The notes beneath the pieces were generated by a model, which searched no databases, was not told the DNA's origin, and saw nothing but the letters and a program-made list of their open reading frames with translations. From a virus (taxonomy: Duplodnaviria; Heunggongvirae; Uroviricota; Caudoviricetes), in the IMG/VR virus record IMGVR_UViG_2695420643_000016, positions 1-7,616 of that record: DNA of 7,616 bases; one strand, given 5' to 3'. This document shows, piece by piece, positions 97 to 7,473 of the stretch. Position 1 is the first letter of the stretch. The number at the start of each line of letters is the position of its first letter. The translations under genes and the position numbers were made by a program.

Positions 97-204
97 TCAC
101 TGGCAGGCCTGAATCACAAACTGGCAGGCCACAATCTTTCCGCGCACAACATCACGGGCATACTGATTGGCAGCATTTACGTTGGGGTAAGATTTCCGGC
201 TCAT
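97..204 (-). pseudogene. N-terminal fragment of a large terminase (TerL-like), 35 codons ending in an in-frame TGA; probable truncated or disrupted terL
   Basis: ATG at 202..204 overlaps the terS stop (ATGA). Translation is [35 protein letters not shown] then TGA at 97..99. The Y-A-x-D-V-x-x-G-K-I-x-A-C ... A-C-Q pattern matches my recollection of the N-terminus of PF03354/COG4626 large terminases, where R-x-L-x-D-L normally follows. No frame in 1..96 continues that motif. A single-base misreading on my side cannot be excluded. Confidence 0.35.
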
Positions 205-695
205 GACTCGATGATTTTCAGAAACGGGTTAGTGGCTTTCTTCTGCCCCGCCAGGCCAATCAGACGCTGGCGGCTGCTGGGGTCGAGTCCGAGCATTGCC
301 CCCGTGCTGCTCATCTCGGACTCCTGTTCTTTTTTGGCGGTCAGCTCCGGATTTTTGACCCTGCCGCCCATTGCACCGGTGATGGTGTTGCCCTGTATGG
401 CAATATTTTTCACGGCACGTCGCCAGAACTCATAGGCCACGCACCACCGCTCAAGCACCGCGAGGTCAGTCACGCACAACAGGCCCTGACCGCAGAGTTC
501 TTTGGTTGTCAGTTGCCACATGATCGTGGCGAGAGGGAGATTTTCTTCTGCGAACCACTCCGGTGGCTCAACACCTTTGATGGGCGTAAAAACAGGTTCA
601 TCTTTATTCAGGGCTCGCTTGCCGGGGTTTCCGGCCAGCGCCTTGCGCGCCGTTGGCTTGGGGCGACGCCCGGAACGCCCCGCCGTTCCAGCCAT
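201..695 (-). CDS. terminase small subunit (P27-like family)
   Basis: Track ORF 201..704. Product [27 protein letters not shown]... resembles P27-family TerS as I recall it. The track start is GTG at 704; the in-frame ATG at 693..695 is preceded by AGGAG and is the likelier start. It sits immediately downstream of the HNH gene and is coupled to the next ORF by an ATGA overlap. Confidence 0.8.
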
Positions 696-745
696 ATGCG
701 GCACTCCTGGTTAAATTTCATTTTTCGCGGGTATAAAAAAACGAT

Positions 746-820: not shown

Positions 821-1171
821 TTACTTCAGCCGTTCACGGGCCGTCTTCGCCTTATGACACGGCCAGCACAGGCTCTGCAGATTGCTGTCGGCATCAGTGC
901 CGCCATGCGCTTTAGGGATGATGTGGTCAACGGTTTTCGCCTCGCGCACCACACCGGCACGCAAACACAACTGACACAGGCCTTTGTCACGCTTTAGTAC
1001 ACGCCCCCGGATAACATCCCATTTCGAACCATAACCGCGCTGGTGTCGGGACTGGCCTGGCTTGTATTGCTTCCAGCCCTCGCTTTTGTGGCTTTCGCAA
1101 TAACCTGACGGGTCAGTCGTGGTATGGCGGCAGCCGCGAACTCGGCAGGCTTTTGGGGTTCGTGGTGGCAT
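821..1171 (-). CDS. HNH homing-type endonuclease, phage packaging-associated
   Basis: Track ORF 821..1270 begins with TTG; the in-frame ATG at 1169..1171 (MPPRTPKACRVRGCRH...) is preceded by GGAG at 5-nt spacing. The product has CxxC...C...H and DHIIPKAHGG...N...CWPCH motifs typical of HNH nucleases. It lies directly upstream of terS. Confidence 0.8.
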   Translation of the reverse strand: MPPRTPKACRVRGCRHTTTDPSGYCESHKSEGWKQYKPGQSRHQRGYGSKWDVIRGRVLKRDKGLCQLCLRAGVVREAKTVDHIIPKAHGGTDADSNLQSLCWPCHKAKTARERLK

Positions 1172-1292
1172 ATGTACTCCAATGAAGAAGCTACCGACAT
1201 AGCCTCCTCCATTCGTCGTGAAACTATTTTCATCTACCCAGTAATGAATTCTTTGAAGAGTCGAGATCAATACAACTCACTGATGGGAGAGG

Positions 1293-1517: not shown

Positions 1518-1740
1518 TCCCCGCTTTGTCAATATTGCATTGTCCCAACGCTGACAACAGACTCACATTCAACTCCAGACTGGCACCATACGTCAGCGGA
1601 TTGGGTATAAACGGTACAGGAGTATCAGAAGTCAGGCTGGCTGGCAGTGGTGCCACCGGAGCGCTCACGTAAACCGTTCGCGAATTTCCGCAACCGGTCA
1701 GCAGCGACAGCAGGCACAGGACGTGAAGCACAATCATCAT
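1465..1740 (-). CDS. Rz1: o-spanin (Rz1-like outer-membrane lipoprotein), overlapped architecture
   Basis: Tandem ATG-ATG at 1735..1740 in the +1 frame inside Rz. Product MMIVLHVLCLLSLLTGC... has a lipoprotein signal with lipobox LLTG-C followed by a proline-rich mature region. The frame stays open 160 bp past the Rz stop. Confidence 0.55.
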   Translation of the reverse strand: MMIVLHVLCLLSLLTGCGNSRTVYVSAPVAPLPASLTSDTPVPFIPNPLTYGASLELNVSLLSALGQCNIDKAGIRKIEASRSGRNESDSK

Positions 1741-2017
1741 CCGCAACAGCCACTTTGATATCTTCCTGGGTTCTCTGTGACTCCAGTGTGATCTGCTGTT
1801 TTGCATGCTGGTTAGCCTCCAGAACTGTATTGACGATTTGCAGTGATTGCAGGACGTTATTGGTAATGACAGTTGCCGATTTGGCATTTTGTACAGCCTC
1901 ATCAGCACGTTTCTTTTCGTGCTGATATTTGCTGTAGTAGTGGTTGGCAGACCAGATGAAAGAACCGATGACAGTAAAGAAGAATGCAGCGATAACCAAC
2001 TTATAGCTCAACTTCAT
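1625..2017 (-). CDS. Rz: i-spanin (Rz-like), N-terminal TM anchor plus coiled-coil periplasmic domain
   Basis: 130-aa ORF directly after the endolysin, overlapping its 3' end by 17 nt. N-terminal hydrophobic segment LVIAAFFFTVIGSFIW followed by a charged, helix-prone sequence. Rz1 is embedded or overlapped in the +1 frame. Confidence 0.75.
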   Translation of the reverse strand: MKLSYKLVIAAFFFTVIGSFIWSANHYYSKYQHEKKRADEAVQNAKSATVITNNVLQSLQIVNTVLEANQHAKQQITLESQRTQEDIKVAVADDDCASRPVPAVAADRLRKFANGLRERSGGTTASQPDF

Positions 2018-2477
2018 TTACCACCCCACCAGCCTCTTTAAACCGGGCAATCAGATCACCGATTTTATGTTCATACTGACCGTAACCAGCACCCGGCAAT
2101 GAAGCCCAGATATTGCTGCAACGGTCGATTGCCTGACGGATATCACCGCGATCAATCATCGGCAAAGCGCCACGCTCTTTAATCTGTTGCAATGCCACAG
2201 CGTCCTGACTTTTGGGAGAGAAGTCTTTCAGGCCAAGCTGATTACGGTAGGCATCCCACCAACGGGAAAGAAGCTGGTAACGTCCGGCGGCTGTTGATTT
2301 GAGTTTGGGGTTTAGCGTGACAAGTTTGCGAGGGTGATCGGAGTAATCAGTAAACATTTCACCACCGACAATAACATCATAACCGTGGTTACGTGTCGGT
2401 TGTCGCCCGTTATCCGTTCCTTCTGACCATGCAACCATATCCAGGAAAGCTTTACGCTGGGAATTTAGTACCTGCAT
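2001..2477 (-). CDS. R: endolysin, lambda R-type lytic transglycosylase
   Basis: 158-aa product MQVLNSQRKAFLDMVAWSEGTDNGRQPTRNHGYDVIVGGEMFTDYSDHPRKLVTLNPKLKS... is near-identical over most of its length to phage lambda R as I recall it, including the catalytic E in the WSEGTD motif. It sits between the holin and Rz. Confidence 0.92.
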   Translation of the reverse strand: MQVLNSQRKAFLDMVAWSEGTDNGRQPTRNHGYDVIVGGEMFTDYSDHPRKLVTLNPKLKSTAAGRYQLLSRWWDAYRNQLGLKDFSPKSQDAVALQQIKERGALPMIDRGDIRQAIDRCSNIWASLPGAGYGQYEHKIGDLIARFKEAGGVVNEVEL

Positions 2478-2480
2478 AAA

Positions 2481-2807
2481 TTACTCCTTAGAGCCACCAA
2501 ACTTATTACCGATTACTCTCATTGCAGCCCCACGAATAGCATCGACCCCGATCAGCCCAACGCCGCCACCAATGGCAACAGAAAGAGATTTAGGCCATCC
2601 GACATACTCAAGAGCGGATGCAAAAGTCAGCGTCAGAGCACCACAGAGCAAAATCTCGAGCGTTTTTCGTTTCCAGCCACCACCACCGCCAAAATAGGCA
2701 ATGCGCAAGCCAGCCATAACGATCGACATAATCACTGCGCCCAGCGGTGTGTCTCCACGCCACCAGCTCTGGACCAACTCCAGCCAGGTATTTGGGTTAT
2801 GAGGCAT
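2481..2807 (-). CDS. holin (class I-like, three predicted TM segments)
   Basis: 108-aa ORF immediately upstream of the endolysin with a 3-nt gap. Three hydrophobic stretches (LGAVIMSIVMAGLRIAYF, LEILLCGALTLTFASALEYV, LSVAIGGGVGLIGVDAI) and a charged C-terminus. The size matches lambda S. Confidence 0.7.
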   Translation of the reverse strand: MPHNPNTWLELVQSWWRGDTPLGAVIMSIVMAGLRIAYFGGGGGWKRKTLEILLCGALTLTFASALEYVGWPKSLSVAIGGGVGLIGVDAIRGAAMRVIGNKFGGSKE

Positions 2808-2959
2808 TTGTAGTTATCTCTCACCTCGCTGATACAGCAGGTGCAAATTGAGGGAACATCATGTACCGCAAATCAGAAGCGGAAACATCAAAGAAGCCGA
2901 ACCGATGGAGAACTGCGGAATAGGCCAGGACCAACGAATCCCCAGCCACAGAAACGACA

Positions 2960-2981
2960 AAACCCGCTCGACGGCGGGTTT
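2960..2981 (-). terminator. tR'-like intrinsic terminator in the late leader upstream of the holin
   Basis: On the minus strand, AAACCCGC-CGUCGA-GCGGGUUU (8-bp stem, 6-nt loop) is followed by UGUCGUUUCUG, a hairpin plus U-rich tract. It lies about 150 nt upstream of the holin start, where lambdoid phages place tR' between pR' and S. Confidence 0.4.
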
Positions 2982-3103
2982 AAGCTGTGTGGCGAAGTAA
3001 CCACTCTTAACAGATTACAATGTTTTTTGCGGAACGCGCTAATGATTTCCTCTTTTTTTTGTTGTATTTTTCACACGGTTGCTAAAATTATTTCGGATCG
3101 ATA
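2982..3103 (-). promoter_or_regulatory. inferred late promoter (pR') and Q-utilisation region, exact elements unresolved
   Basis: Inferred from position between the tR'-like hairpin and the cassette. The only -10-like hexamer on the minus strand is TGTAAT (plus coordinates 3015..3020) with a weak -35. No element could be assigned with confidence. Confidence 0.25.
3059..3088 (+). promoter_or_regulatory. candidate sigma70 promoter for the plus-strand cassette
   Basis: TTGTTG (3059..3064), 18-bp spacer, TAAAAT (3083..3088), about 15 nt upstream of ATG 3104. It is embedded in a T-rich tract that includes a T8 homopolymer at 3053..3060. The leader would be very short and has a weak SD. Confidence 0.25.
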
Positions 3104-4045
3104 ATGAGTACAGAAAATAAGAATAAAACCAGGCGAGTGAGAGTTGGTTTTTTCACTGGTAATGGAAGCAAAAAAGATGGCACATCTGCTGCAAAACTAG
3201 CCTTTGAGCAAATGACCACAGCAGATACTGTAACTTTTCCAATAACTTACACAACAGACACCCCAAATCGAGGGTTAAAGTTAGTTATTCTTCAAAAAGA
3301 TACCACACTGCAATGTTACTTTGGTTACGTATCGTGGAGAAGGGAATGCCTACTACCGTTCATCGAGGATGCTACAGGTAGTGAGAGAACAATTCCTTTA
3401 AATGATAAAGATTCTGTAGTTGAAAGAACATATTTTATCTATTACTACGAAACGGACTTATTAGCTATGACCCTCAACCATATAGGGCCCAAAGTAAATG
3501 ATCTGGCATTCATTTTGTATAACAAAACTGATTTAAAAAGCGTCACTTTTGAAGCCATTTGGAAACAAGAGAGCATGAAGGAACTGCTTGAGGACGGAAA
3601 TATCCTACGTAGTTTCGATCTTATAGTTGCTGCTCCAAGAAACTTTAACAAAGCTAATTATAAGATTAAAAACCCTTTAGCTAATGAAATTATTGACATG
3701 GTTGTTGGTATGGGCGGGTCGCATCTAAGATTAAATATGCGAGGTCGGATTCGCCCGAAAAAACAAGGATTTAACTATCTAAAAACTTCTGTCACCGATG
3801 CTATTAAGGAACTACTTGAACTTTTTCCAAAAGGTTCTGGAGGTCTAAAAATTAAAAAAATTGATGTAACAGAGCCATCCAATAGAACGCCCAAAAGTCT
3901 ACTTGACCAAGTATTGGTCAGTACAAAGACAATCATTGTCAAAAGCGGTTATCCATCCGATTCTGATATCAGAACGGCGATGATATCTGCTAAAATTGAT
4001 AACGCGAACTATCTTGCACAGTATGAGCTCGCTAGCAGAGACTAA
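3104..4045 (+). CDS. hypothetical 313-aa soluble protein, first gene of the AT-rich cassette; candidate sensor component of a RexA/RexB-like two-gene defence module
   Basis: Long ORF on the strand opposite the phage late operon. Hand-counted GC is about 33-37% versus about 58% in a flanking phage gene. No signal peptide or TM segment, and no Walker, HxH, DEAD or PD-(D/E)xK motif that I could recognise. It is followed after 21 nt by a membrane-protein gene. Confidence 0.8.
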   Translation: MSTENKNKTRRVRVGFFTGNGSKKDGTSAAKLAFEQMTTADTVTFPITYTTDTPNRGLKLVILQKDTTLQCYFGYVSWRRECLLPFIEDATGSERTIPLNDKDSVVERTYFIYYYETDLLAMTLNHIGPKVNDLAFILYNKTDLKSVTFEAIWKQESMKELLEDGNILRSFDLIVAAPRNFNKANYKIKNPLANEIIDMVVGMGGSHLRLNMRGRIRPKKQGFNYLKTSVTDAIKELLELFPKGSGGLKIKKIDVTEPSNRTPKSLLDQVLVSTKTIIVKSGYPSDSDIRTAMISAKIDNANYLAQYELASRD

Positions 4046-4066
4046 TAACCAAGCATGGAGGACACA

Positions 4067-4516
4067 ATGAGAGAATTAGCCACTTTTCTCTGGAAATGCG
4101 TCCTCTGGATTCTGTTGACCTATGCAGCGACAAAACTGTTTAAACCGATGAAGCATGCTGACGTACTCACAACAGCGGGGGTGCTCTCGACTATATCAGG
4201 CATCCTGTTTGGTTTTGTTCTGGCTGCAATATCTATATTTAGTAGTGCAAACAGCGATAAGGAAGGAGCAATTAATGCCCTTAAGCAAAACAACGTGTTA
4301 CCAACTCTGGTAAATAGATTACTTTCAACAGGGTTAACTCTCATCGTCGCGTGTATATTTCCATTGATAGCGATGTTTCTACCTGATGATGTTATTGTTG
4401 CGGGCAAACCTATTGATTTCCTGTTCATACTGTTAGGCTTATCCTCCCTTATAATTTCGCTATATACCTTCGGAAGGTGTTGGTTAGTGTTACGAAAAAT
4501 CTTCCCCCACTTGTGA
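4067..4516 (+). CDS. hypothetical 149-aa inner-membrane protein with four predicted TM helices; candidate effector of the cassette
   Basis: Track ORF 4055..4516. The ATG at 4067 is preceded by GGAGG at 5-nt spacing; the ATG at 4055 has no SD and would add MEDT. Four hydrophobic segments of about 20 aa each (FLWKCVLWILLTYAATKLF, VLSTISGILFGFVLAAISIF, LLSTGLTLIVACIFPLIAMFL, IDFLFILLGLSSLIISLYTF). Same AT-rich composition as the upstream gene. Confidence 0.8.
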   Translation: MRELATFLWKCVLWILLTYAATKLFKPMKHADVLTTAGVLSTISGILFGFVLAAISIFSSANSDKEGAINALKQNNVLPTLVNRLLSTGLTLIVACIFPLIAMFLPDDVIVAGKPIDFLFILLGLSSLIISLYTFGRCWLVLRKIFPHL

Positions 4517-4545
4517 CAGGTTGGCCTCATATGGGGCCAACCTGT
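4516..4545. repeat. stem-loop (11-bp perfect stem, 8-nt loop) at the convergent junction between the cassette and the Q gene
   Basis: ACAGGTTGGCC (4516..4526) pairs with GGCCAACCTGT (4535..4545). It begins at the stop codon of the membrane-protein gene and ends 7 nt before the Q stop. No U-tract on either strand. Confidence 0.45.
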
Positions 4546-4551
4546 GCAACC

Positions 4552-4917
4552 CTAAGCGTCCATTTCAAGGTTAACATCCAACATTGAAAGGCAACCATCA
4601 ATAAATCCTTCGGCTAGTTGTATTTCTATGCGTACCAATTTTTCATCCTTTCCACGCACCTTTGCAATCTTACGCTTGGATATTCTGTATAAATAATGTG
4701 CCACAAGCAGCGAGTGCTCATCTGGCTTTTTTTGCTTTAGACGAGCAAGACAACCTTCAATAATTAATGCATCACTATCTGAACAAGCCTGACGTGTTTT
4801 GCTTGTGTAGGGAAGAAGCCCCTTAAACCCAGCAGCTATAGGCGAATAGTCTACTCCAGAACTATCACTCGCCGCCCATGCTCCCCAACGCTCCAGAACC
4901 ATCTGAATATCACGCAT
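4552..4917 (-). CDS. late-gene antiterminator Q, short QuuD-like family
   Basis: Product MRDIQMVLERWGAWAA...AAGFKGL...LEMDA matches my recollection of the DLP12 Q homologue QuuD in its N-terminus and overall pattern. The track start is TTG at 4920; the ATG at 4915..4917 is preceded by GGAG. It sits between the nin-like genes and the lysis cassette. Confidence 0.7.
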   Translation of the reverse strand: MRDIQMVLERWGAWAASDSSGVDYSPIAAGFKGLLPYTSKTRQACSDSDALIIEGCLARLKQKKPDEHSLLVAHYLYRISKRKIAKVRGKDEKLVRIEIQLAEGFIDGCLSMLDVNLEMDA

Positions 4918-4934
4918 CAACTTTCTCCACCAAA

Positions 4935-5930
4935 TCAGGCCAACACCCCAATCGCCAGCGCGCGATCGATAAAACGAAATATCAGCTCCAGTTGGGAGCC
5001 ATACTTCTCTTCAAATGCCACGGTATCCGCATGCAGCTCGTCGTGATGCTTTCTGCACAAAGGCAACACAAAGAGGTCATGCGCTTTTGTACCCATTCCA
5101 CCCTGACCGTGACCTATCAGGTGGTGGGGATCATCAGCAGGCTTTCCACAACATGCACACGGCTGTGTCTTAACCCAGCGCGTGTACTTTTCATTAACCC
5201 AGCGGCGGCGTTTTGGTCGTAACATAAAAGACTCCAGCGACTCCGGATCCACTTTCAGCGCCAGCACCTTTTTCGCTTTATCCTGGATAATGCTGGTGGC
5301 AGGAACCGAAGGCACAAGGTCACTTTCCCGGGTGACCGCCTGCACAACAGGCTTCGGTAATCTCAGTGCCTTACGGGCTGCACTTTCCGGTAAGGCATCC
5401 GCCAGGTCATTACGAATCAGCCACCAGCACAGTTCCGGTATTGTCACAACGTGACTGTCATCAAAACCGAGATCCCGACGCACAACAGACAACACCCAGC
5501 GGGCACAGTTATCCGTTGCCATTGATTCCAGCCGTTCCGTGAACTGATCGCGCAGCTGGTTATCGCAGTGCCAGCACAAACGGATTGCGCCCGGAGCGTG
5601 TCGCATTGTTGTCATGTTCTCGCTGTGCCAGTCGGAATGAGGCCACTGGCAGCCTTTTTCACGAAGTAACCAGCTTTCAAGACATTCCACGCCACCAGCA
5701 CGACGGATCACTGCCTCATTGCGGAATACGGCCCGAACGGCAGGATCATCCGCCAGCGGTTGTGATGCCGCCGGAACGGCACCACTGGCGAAAGATGAAT
5801 AACGTTCCGGCTCAGGCTCCAGCAGGACACGCCCCTGCATAAACAGGGGCATCAACTCTGAACCTGGCCTGAACAATACGATCCCCATACGCGGGGCAAT
5901 TTCAGGGGTCAGTAGTGCTCTCACGGTCAC
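4935..5930 (-). CDS. DUF968-like prophage protein with C-terminal zinc-ribbon/HNH-like motif
   Basis: 331-aa ORF directly upstream of Q, the position YdfU (DUF968) occupies next to the Q gene in the Qin prophage. C-terminal CACCGK...DPHH...GGMG.K...LPLCRKHHDELH motif. The track start is GTG, 1 nt after the stop of the upstream gene. Confidence 0.55.
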   Translation of the reverse strand: MTVRALLTPEIAPRMGIVLFRPGSELMPLFMQGRVLLEPEPERYSSFASGAVPAASQPLADDPAVRAVFRNEAVIRRAGGVECLESWLLREKGCQWPHSDWHSENMTTMRHAPGAIRLCWHCDNQLRDQFTERLESMATDNCARWVLSVVRRDLGFDDSHVVTIPELCWWLIRNDLADALPESAARKALRLPKPVVQAVTRESDLVPSVPATSIIQDKAKKVLALKVDPESLESFMLRPKRRRWVNEKYTRWVKTQPCACCGKPADDPHHLIGHGQGGMGTKAHDLFVLPLCRKHHDELHADTVAFEEKYGSQLELIFRFIDRALAIGVLA

Positions 5931-5931
5931 C

Positions 5932-6741
5932 TCAATGAACGGTATCGAGCAGCTTTAACAGCTCAGGGAATCGGGATTCGAAGAAATGCGGCTGCGTCTC
6001 GCGCGGATTTGCGGGACTGGTGATGTTCTTGCCGAACATGCAGCCTTTCGCTGTCAGCGACCAGAATTTTTTGATGTTGTTAATCGCGGTACGGCTGTAT
6101 CGTTCGCGCTGCTCGACGATCCCCAGCTTCACCATCTGGTGATATGCCTGATTAGCCGTCAGGCGGATACCATACTGTTTCAGCAGTGCACTCAGTGACA
6201 GCGTAGGGCGACTTGAGCCATCGTGTGCATCAGCAGGAGCATCAATGGCATAGCGCGGTGCCAGATTCGGTAAGCCAACAGCCTCCTGGAGTTTCTGACA
6301 GGCCCCAAGCACTGAAGAGTTAGACAGGTTTAACTCCCTGCGCATAAAGTCCAGCAGAATCACTCCAGCCTGCATCTTGTCAGCAGCCTGCCCGGATAAT
6401 TTTTCCGGTGCGCTGGTTACCATATCGAAAGTACGGATCACCTTCAGATGGAATGACGGGCTGATCCACATTGCATAGGCATACACCAGTTCTTTGCAGA
6501 CATACGTCCCCTGGTTATTTCCGCCATTAATGACGCTAACTGGTTGATTTTGTTCCAGAGGCGGAATTCCACCCTCGGTGAAAAGTTGTTCAATCAATTC
6601 ACAGGTTTGCTTATTGGAGAGCCAGTATTTCGGGCGGTTTTTTTGTTCTCCCCCGGCTGCCCTGTGCAGATCGTTCAGGCTGTAACGCCCATAAGCATCA
6701 CGACGAACTTCAATACCATCAATGACCATCAGATTATTCAT
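5932..6741 (-). CDS. KilA-N domain protein with a C-terminal domain of unknown function
   Basis: N-terminal region MNNLMVIDGIEVRRDAYGRYSLNDLHRAAGG...KYWLSNKQT...VCKELVYAYAMWISPSFHLKVI resembles the KilA-N DNA-binding domain. The track start at 6774 has no SD and overlaps rusA; the ATG at 6739..6741 is preceded by AGGAGA and is preferred. Confidence 0.75.
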   Translation of the reverse strand: MNNLMVIDGIEVRRDAYGRYSLNDLHRAAGGEQKNRPKYWLSNKQTCELIEQLFTEGGIPPLEQNQPVSVINGGNNQGTYVCKELVYAYAMWISPSFHLKVIRTFDMVTSAPEKLSGQAADKMQAGVILLDFMRRELNLSNSSVLGACQKLQEAVGLPNLAPRYAIDAPADAHDGSSRPTLSLSALLKQYGIRLTANQAYHQMVKLGIVEQRERYSRTAINNIKKFWSLTAKGCMFGKNITSPANPRETQPHFFESRFPELLKLLDTVH

Positions 6742-6760
6742 ACTTCGTTTCTCCTCTTGA

Positions 6761-7150
6761 TCAGGCGGCTGCACCCGCCGTTTTCTCGTACTTACTGATA
6801 GTGATCTCGACCTTCCCTTCCGGGATAACCGGTCCCCACTCCACCAGCATTCTTTTCACCTGGCTGTCGTCTTCCCACACACCCGCGTGAGTCAGGGCGT
6901 CAAACAGCGCCTTGTTATAGTTGTCCAGATCGCGGATCCGGTTATCCGGAGGAAACAACACGATCTCCACTGAAGCAGGTGCTGACGTTGGTTTCGGCAG
7001 ACGACGTAACTGCTCAACTATTGCTGTGCACGCCGCACTCTGGAATTTTCGCCCCGCCGCGCTTATCAGGCTCTTACCAGCAAACGCCCCTTTGTTGGGG
7101 TGTCGCCAGTACGTGTTCACGCTGGGCGGAAAAGGCAGGATCAGCTTCAT
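6761..7150 (-). CDS. rusA: Holliday junction resolvase RusA
   Basis: 129-aa product with the RusA signature region DLDNYNKALFDALTHAGVWEDDSQV, which resembles E. coli RusA (DLDN..KA.FDALT.AG.W.DD.QV). Typical nin-region position. Its start overlaps the stop of the upstream gene (ATGA). Confidence 0.85.
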   Translation of the reverse strand: MKLILPFPPSVNTYWRHPNKGAFAGKSLISAAGRKFQSAACTAIVEQLRRLPKPTSAPASVEIVLFPPDNRIRDLDNYNKALFDALTHAGVWEDDSQVKRMLVEWGPVIPEGKVEITISKYEKTAGAAA

Positions 7151-7473
7151 GCTTTCAGGCCTCTCTCATGTAACCAGTGGGTTGCACGCAGCCTTGCGTT
7201 TTCCTCACCGGCAAGCAGTGAGCGGATAATCCCGACCGCCTCGCTGTCGTCGTCCTTCACCGCGGTATGAAGCGTTATCCCCCGGGCCACGCCACGCTTT
7301 ATCGTGATGACGCCTTTTTTCTCCAGTGCGCGAAGATGCTCCACCGCTGCATTCACTGAACGGTATCCCAGCATGGTTGCCACCTCCTGATTGGTTGGCG
7401 GGAAGCCACGTTCTTTCTGGTAAGAAATCAGCATATCCAGCACCTGCTGCTGGCATTGAGTTAATGTCGTCAT
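7147..7473 (-). CDS. LexA-family N-terminal DNA-binding domain protein (winged helix), no peptidase domain
   Basis: Product MTTLTQCQQQVLDMLISYQKERGFPPTNQEVATMLGYRSVNAAVEHLRALEKKGVITI...ARGI parallels the LexA N-terminal domain (LT.RQ.EV...I......G.PPT..EIA..LG..S.NAA.EHL.AL..KG.I). At 108 aa it is too short to carry the S24 peptidase domain. Confidence 0.8.
   Translation of the reverse strand: MTTLTQCQQQVLDMLISYQKERGFPPTNQEVATMLGYRSVNAAVEHLRALEKKGVITIKRGVARGITLHTAVKDDDSEAVGIIRSLLAGEENARLRATHWLHERGLKA

Follow-up and report, generated by a model that had tools for sequence, protein, structure and literature searches.

What is a pair of AT-rich genes doing between the late antiterminator gene Q and the holin gene S of an Escherichia coli prophage, on the strand opposite to both? 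The question is raised by a stretch of 7,616 nucleotides (nt) of the virus record IMGVR_UViG_2695420643_000016 (hereafter referred to as the window; all window coordinates count from its first letter), which covers the part of an e14/SfII-like lambdoid E. coli prophage devoted to late regulation and lysis, with all of the phage genes on the minus strand. The two genes, here called A and B, are co-oriented and encode a basic, predicted cytoplasmic protein and a small protein with four predicted transmembrane (TM) helices, respectively (Table 1). In the following we argue that this cassette is probably a highly diverged two-component exclusion module of the RexAB type, which would act by abortive infection or growth arrest and would be expressed during lysogeny as a piece of prophage cargo.

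Gene content and linkage of the cassette

A preliminary description of this DNA had placed two co-oriented genes between Q and the holin gene on the opposite strand, the second of them beginning 21 nt downstream of the first. The open reading frames (ORFs) and the matches to the Q and holin families agree with this placement. For B, in-frame ATG codons at 4055 and 4067 are both candidate starts. A Shine-Dalgarno sequence (GGAGGA, 4057–4062) is situated 4 nt ahead of the ATG at 4067, and the homologues of B are consistently 149 amino acids (aa) long. For these two reasons the start of B was taken as 4067, which is 21 nt past the stop codon of A and backs the earlier spacing, and the ATG at 4055 is probably unused. 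The GC content is 37.6% in A, 41.6% in B, and 39.0% in the whole cassette, compared to 52.0% in the left and 52.8% in the right flank; single flanking windows reach 55–60%, and the Q gene itself has 43%. The compositional contrast noted in the preliminary description is therefore genuine, whereas the figures given there (33–37% versus about 58%) were overstated.

Both A and B are real genes under strong purifying selection and not chance ORFs, because each has dozens of full-length homologues, their ratios of nonsynonymous to synonymous substitution rates (dN/dS) are low (0.047 for A, and 0.03–0.11 for B where dS was unsaturated), and seven diverged alleles contain no disrupted copies and no stops. 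As to whether the two genes always co-occur, a point that the preliminary description had left to a survey, B follows A in the same orientation, at a distance of at most a few tens of bases, in 83 of the 84 loci that were fetched, down to identities of 41–43%, and the sole unpaired locus carries a truncated A. Far more distant genes of the family DUF6731 (~20% identity), to which we assign A below, are also directly followed by a co-oriented ORF of 132–171 aa (6/6 sampled). A scan of genome contigs yielded 3 loci only.

Protein A and the RexA family

Protein A has no match in Pfam, NCBIfam or PADLOC, and PDB sequences gave no match by phmmer or profile hmmsearch. RefSeq labels A and B as hypothetical proteins, and the corresponding PHROG families (phrog_7651 and phrog_8552) are both of unknown function. 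Homologues of A at 45–60% identity carry PF20505 (DUF6731), which is matched by 23 of 39 close and by 118 of 134 distant relatives, and the second E. coli allele of A is named “DUF6731 family protein” in RefSeq. A itself has no match to PF20505 at E ≤ 1 and aligns over its full length with the DUF6731 relatives; judged from these alignments, it is probably a divergent DUF6731 member beyond the reach of the PF20505 model. The earlier remark that neither protein was recognised as a named family thus no longer applies to A, whereas the partner family represented by B is indeed unnamed. In the literature that we searched, neither DUF6731 nor PF20505 nor any of the protein accessions was mentioned.

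The AlphaFold2 model of A, which has a predicted local distance difference test (pLDDT) score of 80 and a predicted template modelling (pTM) score of 0.81, begins with an N-terminal sheet of ~7 strands with flanking helices, continues with an inserted unit of four strands and three helices, and leads with its C-terminal helices back to the first domain. In the model, this order of secondary-structure elements matches the split globular domain and the inserted dimerisation domain of RexA, which has an RdgC-related fold.

By a profile search, 173 relatives of A were retrieved from 1.84 billion cluster representatives, and the cluster names that were sampled were from Shewanella, Pseudoalteromonas, and Vibrio, with no Pseudomonas. 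An alignment of 134 of these relatives with protein A of the window as its first row (A3) was compared by hhalign to a 29-sequence alignment of the RexA family (A4). The two families matched at 92.8% (E 3.9e-7) over 253 columns, with A residues 13–308 placed on RexA residues 2–270. Within this alignment the invariant motif G128-P129 of A coincides with G109-P110 of RexA, and FEAIW (149–153) of A is aligned with the IEPLM segment of RexA just ahead of the G140 hinge. In addition, one DUF6731 member reaches the RexA model PF15969 at 2e-4. Based on these family profiles and the structural model, A is a remote homologue of lambda RexA, and we propose it as the sensor/activator of the pair.

One homologue of A (45% identity) is labelled “portal (connector) protein” in ON470608 / ON470622 (vB_EcoS-733R5, -716R3). 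This label is almost certainly a mis-annotation, since the protein has a RexA-like fold and its gene is next to a B homologue.

Protein B and the RexB family

Pfam, NCBIfam, and PADLOC yielded no match to B above threshold. Two assignments were considered and rejected as sub-threshold, namely DUF4064 (18.8 bits versus a cutoff of 32.1) and MusI (17.5 versus a cutoff of 160). The AlphaFold2 model of B (pLDDT 79) consists of four long helices and a short loop helix, in line with the four-TM membrane protein of the preliminary description. TM2 and the central loop are the most conserved part of the protein, and the loop contains a conserved cluster of G67, A71, L72, and K73.

The B family, enlarged by the ORFs that accompany distant DUF6731 genes (A5), was compared to a RexB alignment that was built from genes downstream of diverse RexA homologues (A6). 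By hhalign the two matched at 93.9% (E 1.6e-7) across 94 columns, which take in TM1, TM2, the central loop, and the first part of TM3. The alignment paired P27/H30/D32 of B with P31/H38/D40 of RexB, and the invariant K73 of B with the likewise invariant K74 of RexB. Since membrane proteins can match by composition, controls were run on the profile matches. Reversed, column-shuffled, and cross-paired comparisons (the A family with RexB and the B family with RexA) all stayed at ≤1.5%, and a control shuffled in 20-column blocks, which keeps local similarity, stayed at ≤24%. We regard it as very unlikely that the cassette is an unrelated system of a sensor and a membrane protein, for example a Kiwa-like one, whose likeness to Rex would be convergent and whose profile signals would be spurious, arising from a common alpha/beta fold and from four-TM composition.

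When the B model was searched with Foldseek against predicted structures of viral proteins (BFVD), rank 2 went to a 165-aa protein of mycobacteriophage Sbash (prob 0.99, E 0.04). Gene 31 of Sbash, which encodes a RexB-like effector, also has a product of 165 aa, and the two were matched by length alone. The cytoplasmic loop in the middle of Sbash gp31 is essential, as documented by the substitutions R70A and D73A (PMC6426596), and the G67/A71/L72/K73 cluster of B is located in the corresponding loop. Taken together, the family profiles and the model indicate that B is a remote homologue of RexB and suggest a role as the membrane effector.

The preliminary description had likened the pair to RexA/RexB and other systems of a sensor and a membrane effector. 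This proposal is now supported by the remote homology of both proteins. As for the searches by which it was to be followed up, the curated models gave no match, and it is the comparison of family profiles that links both proteins to Rex.

Homology to Rex does not in itself fix which of the two proteins is the effector. Five Rex-like systems have been described, four of which use a membrane protein effector that is activated by the RexA-like protein; the system of phage Butters is inverted, with the RexA-like protein as the effector and a RexB-like protein that is dispensable for defence (PMC12894663). If the cassette followed the inverted logic, A would be the growth-inhibiting or anti-phage effector, for instance by coating or clamping DNA, and B would only sequester and silence A until infection sets it free. 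The evidence for Rex homology applies to this arrangement as well, Butters offers a precedent for a RexA-like effector, and the basic nature of A (pI 9.3 and many conserved K/R residues) is compatible with a DNA-directed activity. Nevertheless we consider it unlikely, because the membrane protein is the effector in four of the five described systems and because B is conserved as strongly as A, with a peak at TM2 and the central loop, which suggests an active membrane function rather than that of a simple anchor.

Mobility of the pair and the Q-side cargo site

The pair is located beside the Q gene and is convergent with it in the majority of the lambdoid loci and also in phage cdtI. Other prophages contain it next to an Arc-like repressor and an antirepressor, next to tail-fibre/invertase genes, or next to P2-like tail genes. 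The Vibrio phage 10N.286.54.F4_PE001 (PQ189356), a 14.6-kb, tailless, PM2-like (Vinavirales) temperate virus, carries an A-B pair (locus 1389–2896; 34% and 31% identity) straight after its integrase gene, and all of its structural genes are on the other strand from the pair. In this virus the pair looks like defence-type cargo that is common to tailed and non-tailed temperate viruses. Across these loci the pair behaves as portable lysogeny cargo and not in the manner of a gene bound up with lysis or with late regulation.

When the window was aligned with sister prophages, homology ended at 3019–3043 on the holin side and resumed at 4559 on the Q side. The unit that is swapped comprises a 60–85 bp upstream region of its own, both genes, and an inverted repeat. 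Among 5,426 complete E. coli genomes, 73 from many hosts contain this cassette at ≥99% identity, 25 contain a ~45%-identical allele of the pair with the same flanks, and 18 contain a lone gene for a 248-aa DUF6650 protein in the same orientation and with near-identical Q and holin flanks. The DUF6650 protein matches the PADLOC candidate PDC-M68A (E 7.5e-27) as well as the nuclease domain found in CBASS effectors and in Shedu SduA; from these matches, its gene is likely a stand-alone nuclease gene for defence within this hotspot. A strictly empty site was not seen among the E. coli genomes compared. Because the cargo between the same flanks varies (the cassette, the second allele, the nuclease candidate), we conclude that the Q-side site is a defence-type cargo hotspot. 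That the cassette is horizontally acquired cargo at the Q–S junction, as had been suggested, fits this variable site, and the variability among homologous prophages that was to be checked is evident from the second allele or the DUF6650 gene in place of the cassette. A repeat scan of the window found no flanking direct repeats and hence no sign of transposition.

On the holin side the cargo site is anchored by a block that is conserved at 87–93% in lambdoid phages, that directly abuts Q where cargo is absent, and that is kept in prophages with other cargo. The block contains a candidate late promoter (TTAGCG, 17 nt, TGTAAT, at ~3042–3014 on the minus strand) and a strong intrinsic terminator, and it probably holds the Q-dependent late promoter together with its terminator. 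With the promoter so placed, the cassette appears to lie with the Q gene on one side and the block of late promoter and terminator on the other, outside the Q-dependent late transcript. The preliminary description had compared the site to that of stxAB; this comparison stands for the cargo site as such and would fail for the stx-type position inside the late transcript, the promoter position being a predicted one. A Q-dependent late-operon moron of the stxAB type was accordingly rejected, as the cassette is on the opposite strand and on the Q side of the terminator block.

On the Q side, a near-perfect inverted repeat is situated where the stop codons of B and Q face each other. Apart from this hairpin, scans for Rfam families, tRNAs, and repeats detected nothing in the window. 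The repeat folds at −27.3 kcal/mol on the plus strand and at −24.4 kcal/mol on the minus strand, and a U-tract is found on neither strand. It is likely a transcript-end hairpin that would insulate the cassette from Q read-through; alternatively, it could be a recombination boundary.

The location next to Q and the lysis genes could also mean that the pair serves the prophage's own development, in the lysogeny-lysis transition or in the timing of lysis, and that exclusion is a by-product. There is a parallel in lambda, where RexA fine-tunes the bistable switch and T4rII exclusion is perhaps incidental (PMC11077077). In this prophage, however, the pair is located away from the repressor/Cro switch and on the strand opposite to the early and late operons, and it is interchangeable at its site with a nuclease-type defence candidate. 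Elsewhere its neighbours include an integrase gene or tail-fibre genes, and one of its carriers is a Vibrio virus without a tail. We therefore regard a developmental role as quite unlikely.

Expression, proposed mode of action and points against it

A relaxed hexamer search identified a candidate promoter of the cassette, with a −35 element TTGTTG (3059–3064), an 18-nt spacer, and an extended −10 element TGcTAAAAT (3080–3088) that is the sole extended −10 site. The leader from this candidate to the ATG of A would be ~8–15 nt long. In the lysogen the cassette is presumably expressed from a promoter of its own.

A model for the action of the RexAB-type module can be drawn by homology from lambda RexAB, Sbash gp30/31, CarolAnn gp44/43, and P. 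putida RexABpp. In this model, A would adopt the RexA/RdgC fold, would probably be a DNA-binding dimer, and would sense a cue from a superinfecting phage. It would then engage the conserved central cytoplasmic loop of B, and B, as a four-TM protein of the inner membrane, would open or perturb the membrane. As a result the membrane potential and ATP would drop, macromolecular synthesis would halt, and the infection would be aborted. By analogy with these systems we infer the dimerisation and DNA binding of A, the contact between A and B, the depolarisation, and the protection.

Several observations weigh against the assignment to the RexAB type. Neither A nor B matches the Rex families PF15969/PF15968 or the PADLOC models PDLC02339/02340. 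However, the hidden Markov models of Rex in Pfam and PADLOC, which score strongly on the lambda proteins, also miss the validated Sbash pair gp30/31. Hence, these models define the lambda subfamily only, and the failure of the cassette to match them is no argument against a Rex-like kind in a wider sense. A falls below the reporting limit even of the DUF6731 model itself. At the level of single sequences, hhalign comparisons of A and B with lambda RexA/RexB and Sbash gp30/31 were null, and a narrow profile of the A family (A1) reached 1.6% against the RexA family; the Rex signal appeared only once both families were widened (A3 and A5). It follows that the sequence link to Rex needs diverse family profiles. 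Structure searches gave a similar picture. Foldseek of A against the PDB returned marginal hits to RdgC and CENP-N only, with RexA not among them, the Foldseek E-values for B were weak (0.01–0.04), and lambda RexB was absent from the top 50 matches of B to viral models. The cassette is located ~6–7 kb from the repressor/Cro pair in the full prophage and lacks the adjacency to cI that is the defining context of canonical Rex, so that repressor-coupled expression and a switch-modulating role are not obviously applicable. With regard to expression, a standard consensus scan found no sigma-70 promoter for the cassette, and such AT-rich cargo may be silenced by H-NS.

The lack of a canonical promoter, the AT-rich DNA, and the weak Shine-Dalgarno sequence of gene A would also be expected if the cassette were a passenger that is silent or decaying and has no function at present. 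This explanation seems hardly credible in view of the strong purifying selection on both genes and the intact state of all seven diverged alleles, the conservation at ≥99% across 73 E. coli genomes, and a pairing that persists over very deep divergence.

Features of the window and its neighbourhood

The features of the window and the alternative cargo gene of the sister locus are listed in Table 1.

Table 1 Coordinates of the genes and sequence elements of the window, and of the alternative cargo gene at the same site in a sister locus.
Feature	Coordinates	Strand	Remarks
Small terminase, P27-family	201-704	-	
HNH endonuclease	821-1270	-	
Spanin-like lysis protein	1625-2017	-	
Lysozyme	2001-2477	-	
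Lambda-family holin S	2481-2807	-	PF05106, E 5.7e-25; TIGR01594, E 1.8e-35; first gene of the lysis cassette
Conserved block	2959-3043	-	Left-hand anchor of the cargo site; strong intrinsic terminator 2981->2960 (scan)
Cassette-specific upstream region	3020-3103	+	Beyond the homology to sister prophages
Gene A	3104-4045	+	313 aa, pI 9.3, basic, predicted cytoplasmic
Gene B	4067-4516	+	149 aa, four predicted TM helices, predicted inner-membrane
Inverted repeat	4516-4545		Near-perfect, 15+15 nt, ACAGGTTGGCCTCAT/ATGGGGCCAACCTGT, between the convergent B and Q stops
Late antiterminator Q	4552-4920	-	PF06530, E 7.7e-52; anchors the cargo site on the right; convergent with B
DUF968/HNH	4935-5930	-	
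KilA-N	5932-6774	-	Intact, 280 aa
RusA	6761-7150	-	
DUF6650 cargo gene	2874-3620 of the sister locus	+	Same site as window 3020-4558

Some of the genes around the cassette deserve a brief comment. The HNH endonuclease gene immediately upstream of the P27-family small terminase gene represents the ordinary arrangement of HNH-assisted cos packaging. Upstream of RusA, in a nin-like region, a 108-aa “LexA family protein” that comprises the N-terminal DNA-binding part only is encoded at 7147–7473 on the minus strand of the window; the same protein is found in the prophage of strain EC1722-1 at 24230–24562 of that locus. The EC1722-1 prophage is otherwise near-identical, and in its annotation the KilA-N gene (locus 23033–23830) is a pseudogene interrupted by an internal stop.

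Outside the window, the integrase of the EC1722-1 prophage abuts a P4-like satellite (sid, psu, ogr/delta). An nSTAND1 NTPase (Avs-like) is encoded on this satellite, and an AAA ATPase and RloB pair is located between the two integrases. The satellite and the ATPase/RloB genes are a stacked defence island adjoining the prophage (locus 32376–40802).

Implications for the Rex systems

Beyond the single locus, the combination of DUF6731 with a four-TM partner may represent a large unrecognised Rex clade that has been freed from the immunity switch and moves as a self-contained cassette between the cargo sites of unrelated temperate viruses; we see the chances of this being correct as evenly balanced. 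Its carriers would include lambdoid phages, P2/Mu-like tailed phages, and the tailless PM2-like Vinavirales, and in E. coli it would alternate with nuclease-type defence genes at the Q/late-promoter hotspot, a distribution to which we give the same even odds. If this holds true, Rex would be a broad defence superfamily and not a peculiarity of lambda, and the defence role of RexA would be separable from its role in modulating the switch.

The lineage is fairly widespread. It comprises about 170 cluster representatives at 50% identity, and 98 or more of the 5,426 complete E. coli genomes (73 plus 25) contain it under a hypothetical label. The Rex models of PADLOC do not detect it. The analysis thus provides a hypothesis on the function of DUF6731 and of its unnamed membrane partner. 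Since the cassette is located outside the cI operon and its host E. coli is genetically tractable, it lends itself to studying exclusion cleanly apart from the effect of RexA on the switch and to seeking triggers. The Q/late-promoter junction of e14/SfII-like prophages, in turn, is a defence-cargo hotspot that can be mined for further systems.

Comparison with known systems

Rex is the oldest known abortive-infection system, yet what triggers it and how it works have still to be settled (PMC12894663). The closest model for the cassette is lambda RexA/RexB (PF15969/PF15968; PDB 8TWQ), which has the same order of a soluble and then a membrane protein gene, with a junction of 15 nt in lambda and 21 nt here. 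RexB and B are both ~145–150 aa long and have four TM helices, and both systems reside on temperate lambdoid phages of E. coli. The soluble proteins are less alike, with a structure-based identity of ~14% and lengths of 313 aa for A and 279 aa for RexA. Whereas canonical RexAB is always arranged as cI-rexA-rexB in the immunity region and is expressed on the PRM transcript, the cassette occupies the interval between Q and holin on the opposite strand. A 2025 paper on lambdoid phages in Genome Research reported RdgC/RexA-like genes near cI only and did not mention the cassette. Adjacency to the repressor is also departed from in Sbash, Butters, and Rubeelu, and is thus typical of Rex but not strictly defining.

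The Rex-like pairs of actinophages (Sbash gp30/gp31, CarolAnn gp44/gp43, Butters gp30/gp31) are expressed from the prophage and consist of a soluble protein followed by a four-TM protein, as does the cassette in its gene order. They differ in their much larger soluble partner (337–372 aa) and in the phylum of their hosts. RexABpp of the P. putida prophage P1 (PP_5643/PP_5644; PMC12894663) lies close to a CI-like repressor, unlike the cassette, and the membrane partner of the cassette also has a profile link to RexB.

E. coli RdgC (PDB 2OWL) scores below RexA in the comparison with A and is encoded by a stand-alone chromosomal gene without a membrane partner; PF04381 (RdgC) was not matched by any member of the A family. 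Kiwa (KwaA/KwaB) had been a first guess from the protein sizes and was dropped, as a KwaB-type DUF4868 protein preceded by a four-TM KwaA was not encountered. Among the systems considered, the cassette is an unrecognised variant of the RexAB kind, because both of its parts are homologous to those of RexAB and share their architecture, yet belong to a different Pfam family, a different genomic site, and presumably a different mode of regulation.

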